Below are positions 9,096 through 15,565 of a stretch of DNA of 26,212 nt, one piece after another. The stretch spans positions 1 to 26,212 of the forward strand of contig JAOAKR010000002.1 in the NCBI GenBank assembly GCA_026419815.1. Direction: 5' to 3'. A program made the translations under genes and the position numbers. The notes under the pieces are model-generated. The model was not told the origin of the DNA. It searched no databases and was given only the letters and a program-made list of their open reading frames with translations. Each line of letters starts with the position of its first letter. Positions within the stretch are counted from its first letter, which is position 1. The stretch comes from Candidatus Micrarchaeota archaeon. GTDB lineage: Archaea > Micrarchaeota > Micrarchaeia > CAILAH01.

Positions 9096-9248
9096 ATGGC
9101 GTATGGAGATGACGATTACGATGATGAGGAGGAAATTGAGGAAGAGGAGGAAGAGGACGAGGAGGAGTGGGACGAGGAAGACGAGGACTGGAACGACGAG
9201 TCCGAGGATGAGGAGGAAGAGGAAGAAGAGGAGGAAGAGGAGGAATAG
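9096..9248 (+). CDS. Hyperacidic microprotein, 50 aa, 40 of 50 residues D/E
   Basis: AGGTGA Shine-Dalgarno at 9086-9091, ATG 9096, TAG 9246-9248. MAYGDDDYDDEEEIEEEEEEDEEEWDEEDEDWNDESEDEEEEEEEEEEEE. Mixed GAG/GAA/GAT/GAC codons all keep one frame. Below the ORF-track length cut-off. Confidence 0.65.
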   Translation: MAYGDDDYDDEEEIEEEEEEDEEEWDEEDEDWNDESEDEEEEEEEEEEEE

Positions 9249-12200
9249 CTACTCGTAAGCCCTCTTCAGCGATTTTTGCAAATCGGAGCCGGCCTTGCCG
9301 CCCTCCCTCATTTTGATTACTATAAAGGAAAGGATTATTACGGCGATGCCTGCAAGGACGAGCGTGTAATCCTGCCCTTCGCTTGGCTGTGAGCCGAGCG
9401 CTTCAAGCATTCCAACAGCGGCGTCACGCGCGCTGGAATACCTGCCCTGCTCAAACAGCCGGTCAATATCCTTGGCCTTGGATTCAAGCTGGCTGCGCCT
9501 TGCATCATCCTGCACACCGGCTATTGAGCTGCGCAGCTCTGAGATTGCAAATACCGCGCCTTCCCTTAATGTCCTTATGTATGAGCCCACGGAGGAAGTG
9601 AGCTGCTCAATGCTTGTTGTGAAGGCGGGATAGTCTGAATCCTGCTGCGGGGACTGTGCAAGCGCGCGGTCTATCTCAGACAGCATCTCTTGCGGGCAGG
9701 ATGCGCCGCACGCTTTCACGAGCGCATCGCGCGCCGACTTTAAGGACGCCACCGCTGACTTGAACCGCTCCCTGAATGATGACGCCGCCGCCTTTGATGA
9801 GGATTTCGCTGATGAGAGTGATAGCTCAAGAGACTCTATGCGCGAGCTGATGCGGTCAAGTGCTGAAAACGTCTCGGAAGAAGGGACGCCTGATGATGCG
9901 GCTGATGAAAGCTCTGCCTCAACTTGCGAGATTTCCGGTGGAAGCGAATCCGCATATCCTAACGAGATGAGCTCAAGCCACCCCTTCTTGACATCGTTAA
10001 GCCTCTGTGACAAGGAATACGCCCGTGAATACGCCTCTGAGCTGAGCGAGTATGCCTCATCGCGCCCTTTCTCAAGCAGCCTGATGCGCTTCTCATCGTC
10101 ACCCTCATTAAGTGAGGAATCATAATATGACTGTATCCTTGAGAGCGATTCTGAAACCTGTGGGTCGCTCACATTGCCGAGACCGTTAAGCGTTGAGTTC
10201 AGGAGGCGCTTGAGCTTCTCCTCGTACTCCTTGCGCTGTTCACGCTGCCTTTTTTCGGCCTCGCAATCCGCAAGCGCCTTCTCGGCGAGCGTCACCTCCC
10301 GGTATGCGGTTGCCAGGTTGCCGGACTTGAGCTGTATCCCAGAAAGCTCTGCGTGCAGCCTGGCTTCCTGGCAGGACGTGAACAATGCTGATGAGTTCAC
10401 TGCGGATATGCGTGCACTTATCCGTGAAGACTCAAGGTCTGACTTTGCAGTCACCCTTATGCGGCACTGTGAGCCCGCCTGTATGCGGCTTACTGTGAAT
10501 GAAAGCGATGTGCTTTGCGATGTTGATGAGAGCGACAGTGAGGATGCAGCGCAATCTGAGGAGGACGCCTTTGCAGAGGTGGTGCGGCCCGGCAGCTCAA
10601 CCTGCGCAACATACCCCTCAACCGCGACTGGCGCAGTGTTCTCAACTATGACGTCCATCACCACATCGTCTCCTGAAGCCTGTACGCTTGATGCATATAC
10701 TCTCACAGGGCCCTGCATCTCGTAAACCTCGGTTATCGTGTGCTTCCCCTGCAAAATTTCCCTGGATATCCTGGCATTGCCGTAAAACTCGCCCAAAGGC
10801 TCGCCATCGTAAAGCAGTGTATATGTGCGGTTGAAGCGCGGCTGCACCCACAAGTGCGGCAGCACGCCGTAAGCGGTTGCCTGGCGCTCAACACGGATAG
10901 TAAGCAGTGTGGGTGATGAGAGGGATGATGACGTTTTTGATGAATCAATAGTCGCGAGCGTGCGGTTGTCCGTAAACGTTATCGTGTAAAGCTTGTTCGG
11001 CGTGTATGAGGGGATTAGCACTGAAAGCCTGCCGTTTGAGTAGCTGTGCTCAATGCCATCCTGCGCTGAAGCCTTTGACAGCGAGAGGTCATATGGCACC
11101 TGCACTTCATATGTTATCCCCCGCAATTCTATGCCTGGGTTGATGGTACTGAACGCTGAGTGCAAAACCTGCCTCTGCACTGGCTGCCCGAGGTATATCT
11201 CTCCTGAGTATAAGACGGCTGTCCGTGAGTTTCTGGATAGAGATGCGGATACTATTTGCCTTGCGCGCGAGCGTACTTCTCCTTCAAGCGCCGCGATATC
11301 TGATGCTATTTCCTTGTAATGACCGAGCGAGCGGTATGGGTCAAAACCTCCGGAAAGCGAGATGTATTGCTGGAGCCTTGGGCTTGCCTGTGGCGGTGTG
11401 CCGCCCATCGCCTCAATCTCTTGGATTGCCGGGCCAAGCTGCCTGTATTTTGCCCATAAGTATGAGTATTGCGCGGATGCACGGCTTACTATGAGCTCAG
11501 CAAGCTCAAGTGCCCGGGAAGATATTTCTGCGGCCTGTGCGGCATCAATGTTTTGGGAACTGAGTGCGGCCATCCCCCTCTTGTAATATGAATCAGCATC
11601 AGAAACATCCACACCATCGGCTCTTGCGAGTGCAGTAATGTTCTTCAGGTAGTCAAGAGACTGCCTTGCCATTGCAATAGCGTTGTCCTTCGCCGAATAG
11701 CTTGGCGAGAGGAGTGTGCGCGCGGTTGTGAGCATCATATGTGCCTTGCGCAGGTTTGTTATGCGCGCGCCCGCAGTTGCACCTGTTCCAATGAGCTTCT
11801 CTGCAGAATCTATGAGCGTGCGCGCCTGTTCCAGCCGAGATGCATCCTGCTCAGTTGCGGGCACAAATGCGGAAGCATCGGCCTTTGCCTGCGCAAGCAG
11901 CATAAGTGTTGCCTCGGATGCGGCCTTCTCAATTGCGCGGCCGGACTTATCTGCCTGCTCAAGCTCAAAAGATGCGGCGGTCAGGTGCTCCAAAGCCTCA
12001 TAATGCAGGCTTATGGCGTTCCCGACGTATCCGCGCCCTTTTGATGCATACGTGGCATCCGCCTGCGTGAGAAGTGACTGTGCGCGTGCAATCCTGAGTG
12101 CGGCGCTGTCAATGCGCATAGCCGGGGAATCCGTGCTGAATGACTGCACGCCAAAATATGCCGCATCTGCACCCGATATGCCGCTATATTCAGATGAGAG

Positions 12201-13100
12201 GCGGGTGGAAAGTTCTTGGGCGGACGAGAGCGCACGAAGTGACTGCGTGCGTGATGATGCATACTCGCCCTCAAGCGCGGATATCACCTCTCCTTGCAGG
12301 ACATACACATAATAAAGCTGTGACACTGTTGAGCCTGTGCCGCTTATGCACCCGAACGCATAATCCTTGAAATATGACGAGAGCTGCGAGTATTTTGAGC
12401 CCGATGACTCAGGTGAGAGCGACGCAATTATTGACTTAAGCCGCTCAGAGGTCTTAAGTAGTGATTCTGACTTTTGGGATGCTGTGCCGAGGCTGTTGCT
12501 AAGGTCAGCAATCCGGTTTGCCTGCACGCCGGTATATTTTGAGCCGCCACACATATTATCAAGCGTGCGCTGGCGCTCGGCAACTTTGGAGAGCATTGCA
12601 TTATGGGCCTCTGCCGCGTTTTCGGCAGCGATTGACATATGGGTATAATAATCGGACGCCTGCTCCATCACAGTGCGGCCCTCAACTGTCACGTCTATTG
12701 CCTCACCCACAAATATGATGAACATGCTTAATGGCATATTAACAAGCGCGGTCAGTATAACGGTAGCATCAACATCATCTTCAAGGCTCAATATCAGCCT
12801 GAGCGAGTGGAGCATCCTTTGCCGGGCTGCCTCCGCTTTTGAAATGTGCTCCTGCGACTCCTTCGCGCTTGAGATTACCCCTGCAAGGTCCCTGTCTCCT
12901 GACATCTGGGAGAGGTATGCAAGCGACGGCGGCGTTGATGAGTCTTCTGAGCCCACAACGGCCTCAATGGCGGGGAGGTTTAGGTATTGGAACGACTCCC
13001 ACGGGCGTGCAAACCTCTGCTCAAGGTAAGTTGCGTTGAATGCGTGCAGCTGCGTGAGCAGGAGCATAGACATAACTGCCAGGAAAATTGGTGAGCGCAT
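9249..13100 (-). CDS. Large membrane-anchored surface protein of unknown function, 1283 aa
   Basis: Signal-peptide-like start MRSPIFLAVMSMLLLTQLHA at ATG 13100 (the track's 13199 start lies inside the repeat array). Long Ala/Ser-rich helical regions flank a beta-rich Ig-like middle. C-terminal TM helix YTLVLAGIAVIILSFIVI followed by a basic tail. Confidence 0.8.
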   Translation of the reverse strand: MRSPIFLAVMSMLLLTQLHAFNATYLEQRFARPWESFQYLNLPAIEAVVGSEDSSTPPSLAYLSQMSGDRDLAGVISSAKESQEHISKAEAARQRMLHSLRLILSLEDDVDATVILTALVNMPLSMFIIFVGEAIDVTVEGRTVMEQASDYYTHMSIAAENAAEAHNAMLSKVAERQRTLDNMCGGSKYTGVQANRIADLSNSLGTASQKSESLLKTSERLKSIIASLSPESSGSKYSQLSSYFKDYAFGCISGTGSTVSQLYYVYVLQGEVISALEGEYASSRTQSLRALSSAQELSTRLSSEYSGISGADAAYFGVQSFSTDSPAMRIDSAALRIARAQSLLTQADATYASKGRGYVGNAISLHYEALEHLTAASFELEQADKSGRAIEKAASEATLMLLAQAKADASAFVPATEQDASRLEQARTLIDSAEKLIGTGATAGARITNLRKAHMMLTTARTLLSPSYSAKDNAIAMARQSLDYLKNITALARADGVDVSDADSYYKRGMAALSSQNIDAAQAAEISSRALELAELIVSRASAQYSYLWAKYRQLGPAIQEIEAMGGTPPQASPRLQQYISLSGGFDPYRSLGHYKEIASDIAALEGEVRSRARQIVSASLSRNSRTAVLYSGEIYLGQPVQRQVLHSAFSTINPGIELRGITYEVQVPYDLSLSKASAQDGIEHSYSNGRLSVLIPSYTPNKLYTITFTDNRTLATIDSSKTSSSLSSPTLLTIRVERQATAYGVLPHLWVQPRFNRTYTLLYDGEPLGEFYGNARISREILQGKHTITEVYEMQGPVRVYASSVQASGDDVVMDVIVENTAPVAVEGYVAQVELPGRTTSAKASSSDCAASSLSLSSTSQSTSLSFTVSRIQAGSQCRIRVTAKSDLESSRISARISAVNSSALFTSCQEARLHAELSGIQLKSGNLATAYREVTLAEKALADCEAEKRQREQRKEYEEKLKRLLNSTLNGLGNVSDPQVSESLSRIQSYYDSSLNEGDDEKRIRLLEKGRDEAYSLSSEAYSRAYSLSQRLNDVKKGWLELISLGYADSLPPEISQVEAELSSAASSGVPSSETFSALDRISSRIESLELSLSSAKSSSKAAASSFRERFKSAVASLKSARDALVKACGASCPQEMLSEIDRALAQSPQQDSDYPAFTTSIEQLTSSVGSYIRTLREGAVFAISELRSSIAGVQDDARRSQLESKAKDIDRLFEQGRYSSARDAAVGMLEALGSQPSEGQDYTLVLAGIAVIILSFIVIKMREGGKAGSDLQKSLKRAYE

Positions 13101-13131
13101 GAGTATTATAGGAAAGGAAAAATAAACTACT

Positions 13132-13565
13132 TTTCGGAAAAGAGCAAATACCAAAAAATAATTAATAAGGTGCTTACTTGCTCTGGAAGAAGTGAGCATT
13201 ATCGTGAGGAATCACACATCTTTCGGAAAAGAGCAAATACCAAAAAATAATTAATAAGGTGCTTATTTGCTCTGGAAGAAGTGAGCATTATCGTGAGGAA
13301 TCACACATCTTTCGGAAAAGCAAACCAAAAAATAATTAATAAGGTGCTTATTTGCTCTGGAAGAAGTGGGTATTATCGTGAGGAATCACACATCTTTCGG
13401 AAAAGCAAACCAAAAAAATAATTAATAAGGTGCTTATTTGCTCTGGAAGAAGGGGTATTATCGTGAGGAATCACACATCTTTCGGAAAAGCAAACCAAAA
13501 AATAATTAATAAGGTGCTTACTTGCTCTGGAAGAAGTAGGCGATTATCGTGAGGAATATCCACAC
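13132..13565. repeat. Tandem direct repeat, 5 copies of an 85-89-bp unit
   Basis: Units start at 13132, 13221, 13310, 13395 and 13480. Core TTTCGGAAAAG..CAAA..CCAAAAAATAATTAATAAGGTGCTTA(C/T)TTGCTCTGGAAGAAG..ATTATCGTGAGGAATCACACATC. The last copy overlaps the 3' end of the 13518-13877 gene. Confidence 0.92.
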
Positions 13566-13877
13566 GACTATGGACACAAGCGTAAGCTGGGCAAGCTGCA
13601 TTGGGTTGAACCACCATATTGCCGCGGCAATCAGGGCAGTCATTATTGTGCTGAGTATTATGCTGAGCGCAATGCGGAGCATATTGTCCTCTTCCTCAAC
13701 CTGCACGGCCTCCTTCACGTCTTCCTTTATTTCCGGGCGCAAGTCCTTCTCAATTATGGGCTCTATGCGCTCCACAATCTTCTTCTCAAGGGGTGAGAGG
13801 CGTGCCTGCGCCTTCCTTGCCGCGGGCTTCCTCTTTGCGACCTTTGCTTTTTTGGGTTTTGGCTTCTTTGCTGCCAT
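13518..13877 (-). CDS. Small membrane protein, 119 aa: Lys/Ala/Pro-rich basic N-terminus, acidic linker, two TM helices
   Basis: MAAKKPKPKKAKVAKRKPAARK..., then ALSIILSTIMTALIAAAIWWF and LTLVSIVVWIFLTIIAYFF. TATA-like TTTATAAATA upstream on the minus strand. Confidence 0.75.
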   Translation of the reverse strand: MAAKKPKPKKAKVAKRKPAARKAQARLSPLEKKIVERIEPIIEKDLRPEIKEDVKEAVQVEEEDNMLRIALSIILSTIMTALIAAAIWWFNPMQLAQLTLVSIVVWIFLTIIAYFFQSK

Positions 13878-13940
13878 ATAAATGCACCAAAATTACTTTG
13901 CAGTGCTTATTTATAAATCTTTGAAATAGATTAGGTATGT

Positions 13941-14309
13941 ATGGAAAAGCGGCAGGAGCTTGAGGCTATACTGGCTGACTTGCGCAAGGTCGGTGATGTT
14001 GATGCGAGCGCAATAGTGCGCAGGGACGGCCTTATGGTTGCGAGCGATATGCCAAATTATGTTGACGCGAGGACTATTGCCGCAATGACAGCCGCGCTTG
14101 TCGGCACTGCTGAAACGTCATCTGGCGAGCTCAAGCTCGGCACGTTCGGCCAGGTTATTGTTGAGAGTGGGGACGGCAAGCTTGTGGCGACCGGTGCTGG
14201 CGAGCTTGCAATAATCGCGTGCCTTGTCAGCAAGAATGCGAACCTTGGCCTTGTGCTGCTCAGCATGGACAAGGCGAGCAGGAAGGTTGCACAGGTAATA
14301 AAGGAGTAG
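13941..14309 (+). CDS. Roadblock/LC7 (MglB-like) domain protein, 122 aa
   Basis: DVDASAIVRRDGLMVAS, IAAMTAALVGTAE, QVIVESGDGKLV, ANLGLVLLSM: canonical roadblock pattern. Confidence 0.9.
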   Translation: MEKRQELEAILADLRKVGDVDASAIVRRDGLMVASDMPNYVDARTIAAMTAALVGTAETSSGELKLGTFGQVIVESGDGKLVATGAGELAIIACLVSKNANLGLVLLSMDKASRKVAQVIKE

Positions 14310-14316
14310 TGTGGCG

Positions 14317-14496
14317 ATGGCAACCCCAAGGGAGCTTATGAAGCGTGCAAGGAAAGTGCTCGGCCCCGTGGCTGAGACTATTGGGACTGAGCTCACAATC
14401 CAGGGGCTTGATGATGAGGAGTTTGAGAGGGAATACATTGAGCGGCTCGCCAAGATAACTGGGAACAAGAAGCTTGTGGAGAACATACTTAAGTAG
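14317..14496 (+). CDS. Small helical hypothetical protein, 59 aa
   Basis: Immediately follows the roadblock stop, GGAG upstream. MATPRELMKRARKVLGPVAETIG...EREYIERLAKITGNKKLVENILK. GTG 14311 is an alternative start. Confidence 0.65.
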   Translation: MATPRELMKRARKVLGPVAETIGTELTIQGLDDEEFEREYIERLAKITGNKKLVENILK

Positions 14497-14530
14497 CCGC
14501 TTCACCAAAATGCCGCATTAGGGGGATATT

Positions 14531-15565
14531 GTGGATGGCCTTATATTAAATGAGAGCGTGCTTTTGCCGGAGTTCCAGCCTGAGCGGCTGCCTGGCAGGG
14601 AAGGCGAGATTGAAGAGATTGCGCACAACTTCAGGCTTGCACTTGAGGGGAGAAAGCCGCAGAACCTCCTCATACACGGGCCGCCCGGCACTGGAAAGAC
14701 GGCGGTGCTCAAGCACGTTATGGGGCTTCTTGAGGAATACTCTTCAAAGGTAAGGATTGCATATGTCAACTGCTGGAATGCGGGCACGCGGTACGGCGTG
14801 CTCGGCGAGGTTGCGCGGAAGGTGGGCTTCATATCCCCAATGAAAGGGACAGCTGTTGAGGACCTGTTGAGGAGGATTGCTGAGATATCCGTAAAGAGGG
14901 GGCTGTATGTTGTTGTTGTGCTTGATGAGATGGACCGGCTTGTGGCAAGCGGGCACGGCGATGTGCTTTACGACCTGAGCAGGATGAATGAAGTGTACGG
15001 GGCGAGGGTAAGCGTCGTCGGGGTAGTCAATGATTTTGGGCTTGTAATGTCGCTTGACCCGCGGATCCGCAGCTCGGTCATAAGCAAGGATATTGAGTTT
15101 AAGGGATATACGGTGCCTCTTCTCAAGAGGATACTCATTGAGAGGGCACGGCACGCATTCAAGTCGGCAGATGATGAGGCGGTTGGGCTGTGTGCGGCGC
15201 ACGCATACAAGTGTGGCGGTGATGCGCGCCTGGCAATCAGCCTCCTGCTTGCCGCCGGCAGGATAGCCGAGAAAAAGGGCTTGCGGGAGCTTGACGTTGG
15301 CTCGGTAAGGGAAGCTGCATCCCAAAAGAGCTTTGTCCCGAAGCAGGAGAAGGCTGAGGTTTTACTGGGTGAAGTTGAGCGGATGATTGTTGATGCACTC
15401 AAGGATGGGCCACTGCAGAGCGGCGACCTATACAGGAAGCTCGGCTCAATCAACGAGCGCACGCTCAGGAATTACATAGCAAAGCTTGTTGAGTCTGGCA
15501 TAATAGTTGCAGAGGAGGCGGAGGGCAAAGGTAAGAGCCGTGTACTCAGGCTCAGGGGCAAGTAG
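14531..15565 (+). CDS. cdc6: Orc1/Cdc6 replication initiator, 344 aa
   Basis: PERLPGREGEI, Walker A HGPPGTGKT, YVNC, Walker B VVVLDEMD, LDPRIRSS, Y....L..IL..RA, GGDARLAI, C-terminal winged helix. Confidence 0.92.
   Translation: MDGLILNESVLLPEFQPERLPGREGEIEEIAHNFRLALEGRKPQNLLIHGPPGTGKTAVLKHVMGLLEEYSSKVRIAYVNCWNAGTRYGVLGEVARKVGFISPMKGTAVEDLLRRIAEISVKRGLYVVVVLDEMDRLVASGHGDVLYDLSRMNEVYGARVSVVGVVNDFGLVMSLDPRIRSSVISKDIEFKGYTVPLLKRILIERARHAFKSADDEAVGLCAAHAYKCGGDARLAISLLLAAGRIAEKKGLRELDVGSVREAASQKSFVPKQEKAEVLLGEVERMIVDALKDGPLQSGDLYRKLGSINERTLRNYIAKLVESGIIVAEEAEGKGKSRVLRLRGK

Follow-up and report, generated by a model that had tools for sequence, protein, structure and literature searches.

Reiterated gene ends in a spacer-free tandem array upstream of an archaeal surface-protein gene, a probable product of local duplication

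The window analysed here, 26,212 nt long, is one whole contig of a short-read metagenome-assembled genome (MAG) of a Micrarchaeota archaeon from a hot spring (567 kb in 68 contigs, 61% complete, 2014-era data). It carries a tandem array between the gene of a 119-aa membrane protein and the gene of a 1283-aa surface protein, both on the minus strand, with a gap of 417 nt from the stop codon of the first to the start codon of the second at 13100 (Table 1). TRF reported one strong array between the two genes, at 13132-13557 (period 85, 4.9 copies, 95% matches, score 706), by far the strongest tandem array of the whole stretch. Its units stand head-to-tail and abut with zero unique spacers, the period being equal to the unit length, and a repeat search gave start-to-start spacings of 89, 85 and 85-86. 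Every unit downstream of the gene reproduces, in decayed form, the final ~16 codons of the 119-aa gene together with the stop codon and ~45 nt of the 3' tail. In the alignment this homology to the gene begins at GTG TGG, ~16 codons before the stop. The first-pass annotation had already described the unit as a copy of gene end, stop and T-rich tail, which was borne out except for its extent, put at ~13 codons. The unit lengths given there (89, 89, 85 and 85) agreed with the alignment and the repeat spacings, its list of plus-strand words (GTGAGC, GTGAGC, GTGGGT, GGGGT, GTAGGCG) was correct, and the lack of spacers was seen both by TRF and in the alignment. A CRISPR array, which would hold unique spacers of similar length between its repeats, was ruled out, since these units abut.

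Table 1. Coordinates of the flanking genes, the repeat units and the sequence elements of the array.
Feature	Position	Strand	Description
119-aa gene (P0001)	13518..13877	minus	Lys-rich N-terminus, hydrophobic C-terminal half ending ...FLTIIAYFFQSK before the stop; ORF list and translation
1283-aa surface protein (P0002)	9249..13100	minus	Signal peptide, Ser/Ala-rich coiled-coil-like body, C-terminal membrane anchor
Likely surface-gene TATA box	13118..13129	minus	TAGTTTATTTTT; -29 to -18 from ATG; just outside last unit
u0	13565-13477	minus	89 nt; real gene end, 16 codons (VWIFLTIIAYFFQSK plus one before), TAA 13520-13518, tail; repeat template
u1	13476-13392	minus	85 nt; word ACCCC, AAA-TAA pseudo-stop, T7, short tail (alignment)
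u2	13391-13307	minus	85 nt; word ACCCAC, AAA-TAA, T6, short tail (alignment)
u3	13306-13218	minus	89 nt; word GCTCAC, AAA-TAA, T6, long tail (GGTATTTGCTCTTTT); junction words in Logan contigs
u4	13217-~13130	minus	~88 nt; word GCTCAC, AAG-TAA (ancestral G), T6, long tail; continues into unique flank
AT box, TATA-like, one per unit	13503..13512, 13428-13419, 13342-13333, 13257-13248, 13168-13159	minus	TTATTAATTA
First T6 tract	13497..13502	minus	15 nt after real stop; then CTTTTCC 13490-13484
Recurrent oligo-T tract and CTTTTCC	13418-13412, 13332-13327, 13247-13242, 13158-13153	minus	In u1-u4

The units differ from one another in a variable word, in AAG or AAA before the (pseudo)stop, in a T6 or T7 tract and in a 4-nt difference in tail length. 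About 5 of ~12 inferred events fall in the variable word, within 7 columns of the unit alignment. The simulated p for this clustering was ~0.05, and ~0.19 for a narrower count among u1-u4. A mutational hot spot at this word is thus marginal and suggestive at most, not clearly beyond chance. The variants on which the first-pass annotation had based its claim of variation at one spot were real, but other differences exist and the clustering stays in a p range of ~0.05-0.2. The short palindrome it had pointed out (CTTTTCCGAAAG) is present as well, but forms a weak A-U stem that was unused in the predicted minimum-energy folds.

Both flanking proteins are poorly connected to known families. For the 119-aa protein only a weak match to DUF6594 was obtained, below the cut-off, with no family above it. 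Homologues of its gene were present in 7 of 8 genomes of the same family and in 0 of 32 other genomes of the class, so that among the genomes searched it is restricted to one family of Micrarchaeia, with carriers labelled Candidatus Micrarchaeia (DPANN). The 1283-aa protein had no family match in Pfam or NCBIfam. Its orthologue in a sister species (G001) uses the same start codon, is 60% identical at the N-terminus and has a TATA-like TTTTTATT at -28. The TATA box of the surface gene sits outside the repeat, so its promoter is not duplicated along with the units. Unit u4 contains an ATG (13199) in the reading frame of the surface gene, which gives rise to a spurious ORF of 1316 aa; the orthologue of the sister species supports the start at 13100. 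For annotators, the array therefore accounts for a spurious N-terminal extension of the surface protein. The neighbourhood is a housekeeping one, with genes for topoisomerase I, fibrillarin, a PAP2 enzyme, Roadblock/LC7, orc1/cdc6, a class-I tRNA synthetase, RtcA and ThiI. A nearby recombinase or reverse transcriptase, for which the first-pass annotation had advised a search, was absent from the ORFs of the window, as were integrase and cas genes.

The only public DNA run that contains the sequence is a 2014 hot-spring metagenome in the form of Logan contigs (k=31), which may be the MAG's own sample. In these independent contigs, words across the unit-to-unit junctions were present with zero mismatches, and both junction types were recovered, the long-tail one (13202-13265) and the short-tail one (13267-13350). 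Junction words need at least two tandem copies; the tandem structure is therefore in the reads. Their Logan depth was 15.7-59.7 against 8.4-9.7 in the flanks, and words present once or twice in the assembled array sat at 1.6-6.3 times flank depth, a contig depth that is no copy count. This excess suggests more, or variable, copies, again with the reserve that depth in contigs does not count them. The Logan contigs broke up inside the array, because a k=31 graph must break there, none of them spans it, and variants specific to u1 and u2 fell in uncovered bins. The five assembled copies are probably the minimum path through a longer or heterogeneous array whose true copy number is above five, and the array is probably a site where short-read assembly under-counts copies. 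A genome that is truly single-copy, or an assembler that strung together units of different strains, would be an alternative in line with the fragmented short-read MAG of 2014-era data (68 contigs), with the array being unspanned and the u1 and u2 variants uncovered in the Logan contigs, and with the homopolymer-type differences between the units. The zero-mismatch junctions of both types, at a depth that speaks for more copies and not for fewer, leave a very small probability for such an origin, and they argue against the single-copy scenario raised in the first-pass annotation.

Comparison with relatives gave a polarity to the units. In the sister species G001, of the same genus, the orthologous genes lie 62 nt apart without any repeat, and an independent Logan contig of that species (L036) shows the same pair 60 nt apart, also repeat-free. 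The 118-aa orthologue in G001 is 83-84% identical to the 119-aa protein, and the end of its gene (…ATAATCGCCTACTTCTTCCAGAGCAAGTAG) differs little from u0. The gene end is therefore the ancestral form, from which the other units derive. A reiterated gene end is missing from all seven family relatives searched (G001 and six others), and in those where a signal-peptide-like gene follows, spacers are 31-74 nt. The array therefore arose within this lineage, and by this comparison it is young and lineage-specific. Conspecific strains were not found by an exact-protein look-up, among related loci or in a search of 5.8 billion proteins; only the 83%-identical, array-free sister species was. Nor did the unit occur elsewhere in its own 567-kb assembly (61% complete), and the exact 34-nt unit pattern had no match in 241 million metagenome records and the GTDB species genomes.

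The AT box in each unit raised the question of promoter activity. Genome-wide, TATA-like hexamers form a sharp peak at -31 to -27 relative to start codons, which means that most mRNAs have no leader or almost none, and TTAATT and TAATTA are 10-11-fold enriched in the sampled upstream window of -42 to -16. The AT box scored 6.9 bits, above the median best score of 5.6 for real upstreams and in a range where 0.27% of genome positions reach 6 or more, with a matrix that was trained on the genome's own upstreams and is weak (~3.7 bits in total), which makes its scores only suggestive. Such boxes might fire short transcripts or a near-leaderless mini-ORF (ATGTGTGATTCCTCACGATAA, MCDSSR and a stop) ending at the next U tracts, or antisense RNAs against the gene end. 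In the 85-nt units the ATG created by the junction is indeed found 31-32 nt downstream of TAATTA/TTAATT, on the fringe of the genomic peak. In the 89-nt units, however, this spacing is 35-36 nt and exceeds the peak, which means that the two unit types do not share one geometry. A leaderless mini-ORF of 6 codons was rejected on account of this 4-nt difference between unit types, and a selected mini-ORF or promoter geometry in the units is unlikely. More simply, the AT box is the ancestral T-rich tail of the gene. An Rfam scan of 12900-13950 with E up to 10 returned chance-level hits only (best E 1.1-1.2, 20-21 bits against gathering scores of 50-80). RNA folds of single units had z-scores of -0.6 to -2.4, and that of the whole array -3.1, as expected for self-pairing repeats. 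None of the public RNA runs searched contains the array sequence. With neither an Rfam match (best E 1.1) nor a convincing fold of the unit, the small RNAs proposed in the first-pass annotation lost their footing, and we consider transcription from within the array improbable.

A protein-binding role, also put forward in the first-pass annotation, might be suspected from the orc1/cdc6 gene at 14531-15565, 1 kb from the array, which is the largest non-coding stretch nearby, and the plus strand reads CTCTGGAAGAAG(T)GGG(T), which we take to be faintly like an origin recognition box (ORB). The units could then form, for example, a nascent cluster of Orc1/Cdc6 sites; alternatively they could be scars left at the 3' end of the gene by successive site-specific integrations. 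Searched with an ORB pattern, the array contained no canonical ORB-like words, and it holds direct repeats only, with no inverted layout and no arrangement for duplex unwinding. The sister species, moreover, keeps the orc1 neighbourhood without the array. A replication origin was rejected on the lack of ORB words and of an inverted layout and on the absence of the array from the sister species. Between the copies there is no cargo DNA, and among the window's ORFs there is no integrase or recombinase domain; reiterated att sites were rejected for these reasons. We give binding sites and integration scar together a next to negligible chance. On the plus strand at 13941-15565, the Roadblock/LC7 gene, a 59-codon ORF (14318-14497) and orc1/cdc6 follow one another head-to-tail with almost no spacers, so that no sizeable non-coding region precedes orc1/cdc6 and no obvious origin adjoins it. 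The only good-looking ORB-like word of the genome is at ~7060 of contig C20, within what appears by eye to be an intron-bearing tRNA gene. This tRNA-like gene (C20:6920-7160; GGGCTCCTGTAGTCTAGTCCGG...), not called by ARAGORN, has two identical inserts of ~36 nt (CAGCCAACCAGAGGGGGAGAGCCCCCTCAGGTTTCC) that may be duplicated introns.

The differences between the units record part of their history. Compared with u0, units u1-u4 all lack 3 nt (GTGTGGATATTCC to GTGTGATTCC) and, in the variable word, one further nucleotide. Their common source is therefore a single spare copy that had decayed before its amplification. The outer units u0 and u4 keep the ancestral AAG-TAA, the inner units u1-u3 have AAA-TAA, and tails are short in u0-u2 and long in u3-u4. 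A mosaic with AAG outside and AAA inside would be expected from homogenisation or amplification of inner units, as slippage or unequal exchange produces it. We propose that a segment of ~89 bp, which began at codon 104 of the 119-aa gene and reached ~45 nt beyond the stop, was first duplicated in tandem, likely by replication slippage or template switching at a short similarity between the gene (...TCCATAGT...) and its tail (...TCCGAAAAGT...). The spare copy would then have decayed, and the decayed copy would have been amplified to at least four copies by slippage or unequal recombination, with later point changes and small indels. Where the first junction presumably formed, the two sequences are TCCATAGTCGTGTG (gene) and TCCGAAAAGTAG (tail), which share a short and imperfect similarity; today the junction reads AAAG-ATGTGTG instead of the expected AAAG-TCGTGTG. 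This imperfect microhomology counts against the duplication reading. The product may have persisted since a duplication spanning the stop leaves the first copy of the gene end intact and, as it halts just short of the TATA box of the surface gene, would harm neither gene. Polymerase leaving the 119-aa gene would now meet at least five U6 plus U4 modules instead of one, and the spacer to the surface-gene promoter would have grown from ~77 nt to 417 nt, with expression probably little changed. All in all, we think it likely that the array is a microhomology-seeded tandem duplication, later expanded and near-neutral, which stacked terminators as a by-product, and we favor this over a tuned device. 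Observed are the unit anatomy, the deletions in common, the lack of the array in relatives, further tandem duplications of the genome and the motifs of the units; the slippage mechanism, the neutrality and termination at the U tracts are what we infer from sequence.

Further tandem duplications in the same genome bear on this duplication history. TRF on the whole assembly returned ~8 others of high identity, with units of 42-62 bp in 2-3.4 copies, a count from a short-read MAG that may itself be affected by assembly. Unit lengths that are multiples of three (45, 48 and 51 bp) are found within long ORFs, other lengths outside them. One of them, on contig C22 (1406-1568, 61 bp x 2.6), directly follows the gene of a 170-aa membrane protein ending in ...LIYLCYIYIKKKYM, and its units repeat, with decay, the final ~16 codons of that gene, its stop and the first downstream bases. 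Unit 1 matched the gene end with a score that 0 of 2000 shuffles attained, and units 2 and 3 gave p values of 0.015-0.024. The first-pass annotation had called for a search for other gene-end reiterations; this one was found, and such reiteration therefore occurs at least twice in the genome. At C22:1330-1600 (locus L035:231-501), extra copies of AGCGATAATTGTATGAAATC lie at ~1383, ~1625 and ~1680. G001, sampled over 354 kb, has two arrays of comparable kind. Most simply, tandem duplication would be the mutational process at work and selection the filter on its products. With spacers of only 30-80 nt, a duplication of 85 bp can hardly avoid a gene, and where genes are packed so densely, duplications of any length other than a multiple of three would mostly be tolerated only across a gene end. 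In prokaryotes at large, tandem repeats are overrepresented immediately outside coding regions and are prone to collapse in short-read assemblies (PMC12418385); the survival of stop-spanning duplications agrees with this enrichment. The locus thus tells part of the natural history of tandem duplication in a very compact archaeal genome. It also calls for caution, as surviving stop-spanning duplications of other than multiple-of-three length mimic deliberately reiterated gene ends with stacked terminators. Three other arrays of the genome were seen close to tRNA-like sequence. A 42-bp x 3.4 array with 99% match (C16:1-230, locus L034) starts a few bases after a tRNA-like 3' end (GGGGTTCGAATCCCCGTGAGTCCA) at a contig end, where ARAGORN and Rfam called no tRNA. 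The near-perfect intergenic duplications at C2:5652-5769 (L032; 48 bp x 2.5) and C15:43-195 (L033; 62 bp x 2.5) are both near tRNA-like sequence, and within the C2 unit there is a word made of a hairpin and a T run, AAAAGAGGTGCAAACCTCCTTTTT. The arrays on C2, C15, C16 and C22 had no matches in tRNA and Rfam checks.

In terms of content, the array does resemble a series of transcription terminators. Every unit holds a U6/7 tract 15-17 nt after the (pseudo)stop and a U4 tract 6-12 nt further on, and all units thereby show the pattern of archaeal U-tract terminators, at least one and ideally two tracts of U4 or longer downstream of a stop. The first T6 tract with its CTTTTCC is likely the working terminator of the 119-aa gene. 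Across the genome, runs of T5 or longer are enriched in the first 20 nt after stops (56 of 509 genes) and occur within 80 nt after stops in 20% of genes, compared with 8.6% of random 80-nt windows. Work on Methanococcus has linked a larger number of U4 tracts to higher termination efficacy; the efficient layout, to which aCPSF1 binds, has two tracts, and termination sites often follow one another (PMC8716108). Judged by its sequence, a stack of at least five terminator modules is a fair description of what the DNA physically holds.

Whether such a stack was selected is a different matter. The U-tract modules might block read-through into the leaderless promoter of the surface gene, with copy number tuning the interference. 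This would be in line with the tracts in each unit, with the T runs that mark gene ends in this genome and with the reported gain in termination from additional U4 tracts at frequently consecutive sites (PMC8716108). The array also stops right at the border of the surface-gene TATA box, and k-mer depth hints at still more copies. The sister species and other relatives, however, run the same gene pair on 31-74 nt with one T-rich tail, and the first module alone already has the two-tract, high-efficacy layout that should suffice. About 45 of the 85 nt in a unit are copied coding sequence, which has no role in termination and is what plain duplication would leave behind. The C22 array, which copies a gene end as well, speaks for a mutational habit and not for a device. 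We therefore regard a selected terminator or insulator stack as unlikely. Of the stack tuning read-through that the first-pass annotation had put forward, the U6/7 and U4 content was confirmed, but the tuned, selected device was not, as the sister species manages with a spacer of 60-62 nt and the TATA box of the surface gene falls beyond the repeat.

The position upstream of the promoter of a large surface protein is a classic place for contingency loci. That the array lies directly upstream of this promoter counts against the neutral reading, and its copies, at least five against 2-3.4 in the genome's other arrays, could hint at a selected expansion. Terminator-plus-TATA units whose number changes by slippage might switch or tune a surface protein that mediates host-cell contact, and the proneness to duplicate would be of use to further membrane-protein genes, for instance that on C22; we see little chance for this. 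If copy number did vary and affect the surface protein, the locus would be a rare contingency locus in DPANN archaea.

Near-neutral local duplication places the array in a known class. Its units are head-to-tail without spacers, they derive from adjacent single-copy sequence, and close relatives lack them; it is a prokaryotic intergenic minisatellite made by local duplication, of a known kind, real but ordinary. It resembles intergenic VNTRs, for example the Wolbachia typing repeats with periods of 100-140 bp (PMC3287509), in its head-to-tail, spacer-free units of high identity, and prokaryotic VNTRs more widely (PMC3287509; PMC12418385) in its non-coding site by a stop codon, its lineage-specific presence and its likely collapse in short-read assembly. 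VNTRs are, however, defined in practice by copy-number polymorphism, whereas this array is known from one assembly, and its unit repeats the final codons of the gene next to it. Microhomology-mediated tandem duplication in S. pombe (10.1101/2020.03.03.972455; PMC8639346) likewise duplicates a local segment between short similar words, reversibly and with room for expansion; here the microhomology is short, imperfect and reconstructed after the fact, and the host is an archaeon. MIRUs (PMC12548453) share units of 40-100 bp, often in tandem, between co-directional genes whose stop and start codons they touch harmlessly. They are dispersed, apparently mobile and contain an internal ORF coupled to the downstream gene, whereas the present unit is gene-derived, confined to one locus and contains stops. 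A dispersed element of MIRU type was rejected since the unit, locally derived, occurs at one locus only in the 567-kb assembly (61% complete). With archaeal U-tract terminators (PMC8716108; Dar et al. 2016 as cited there) the array shares several U4-U7 tracts shortly after a stop, but consecutive terminators in nature do not repeat an exact 85-bp unit with coding sequence in it, and those of the array are predicted from sequence.

A second, much shorter repeat borders the surface gene on its other side. Just downstream of its stop, at 9126-9245, a 9-bp repeat of the GAGGAGGAA type occurs in 13 copies and corresponds to the acidic micro-ORF of the first-pass annotation.
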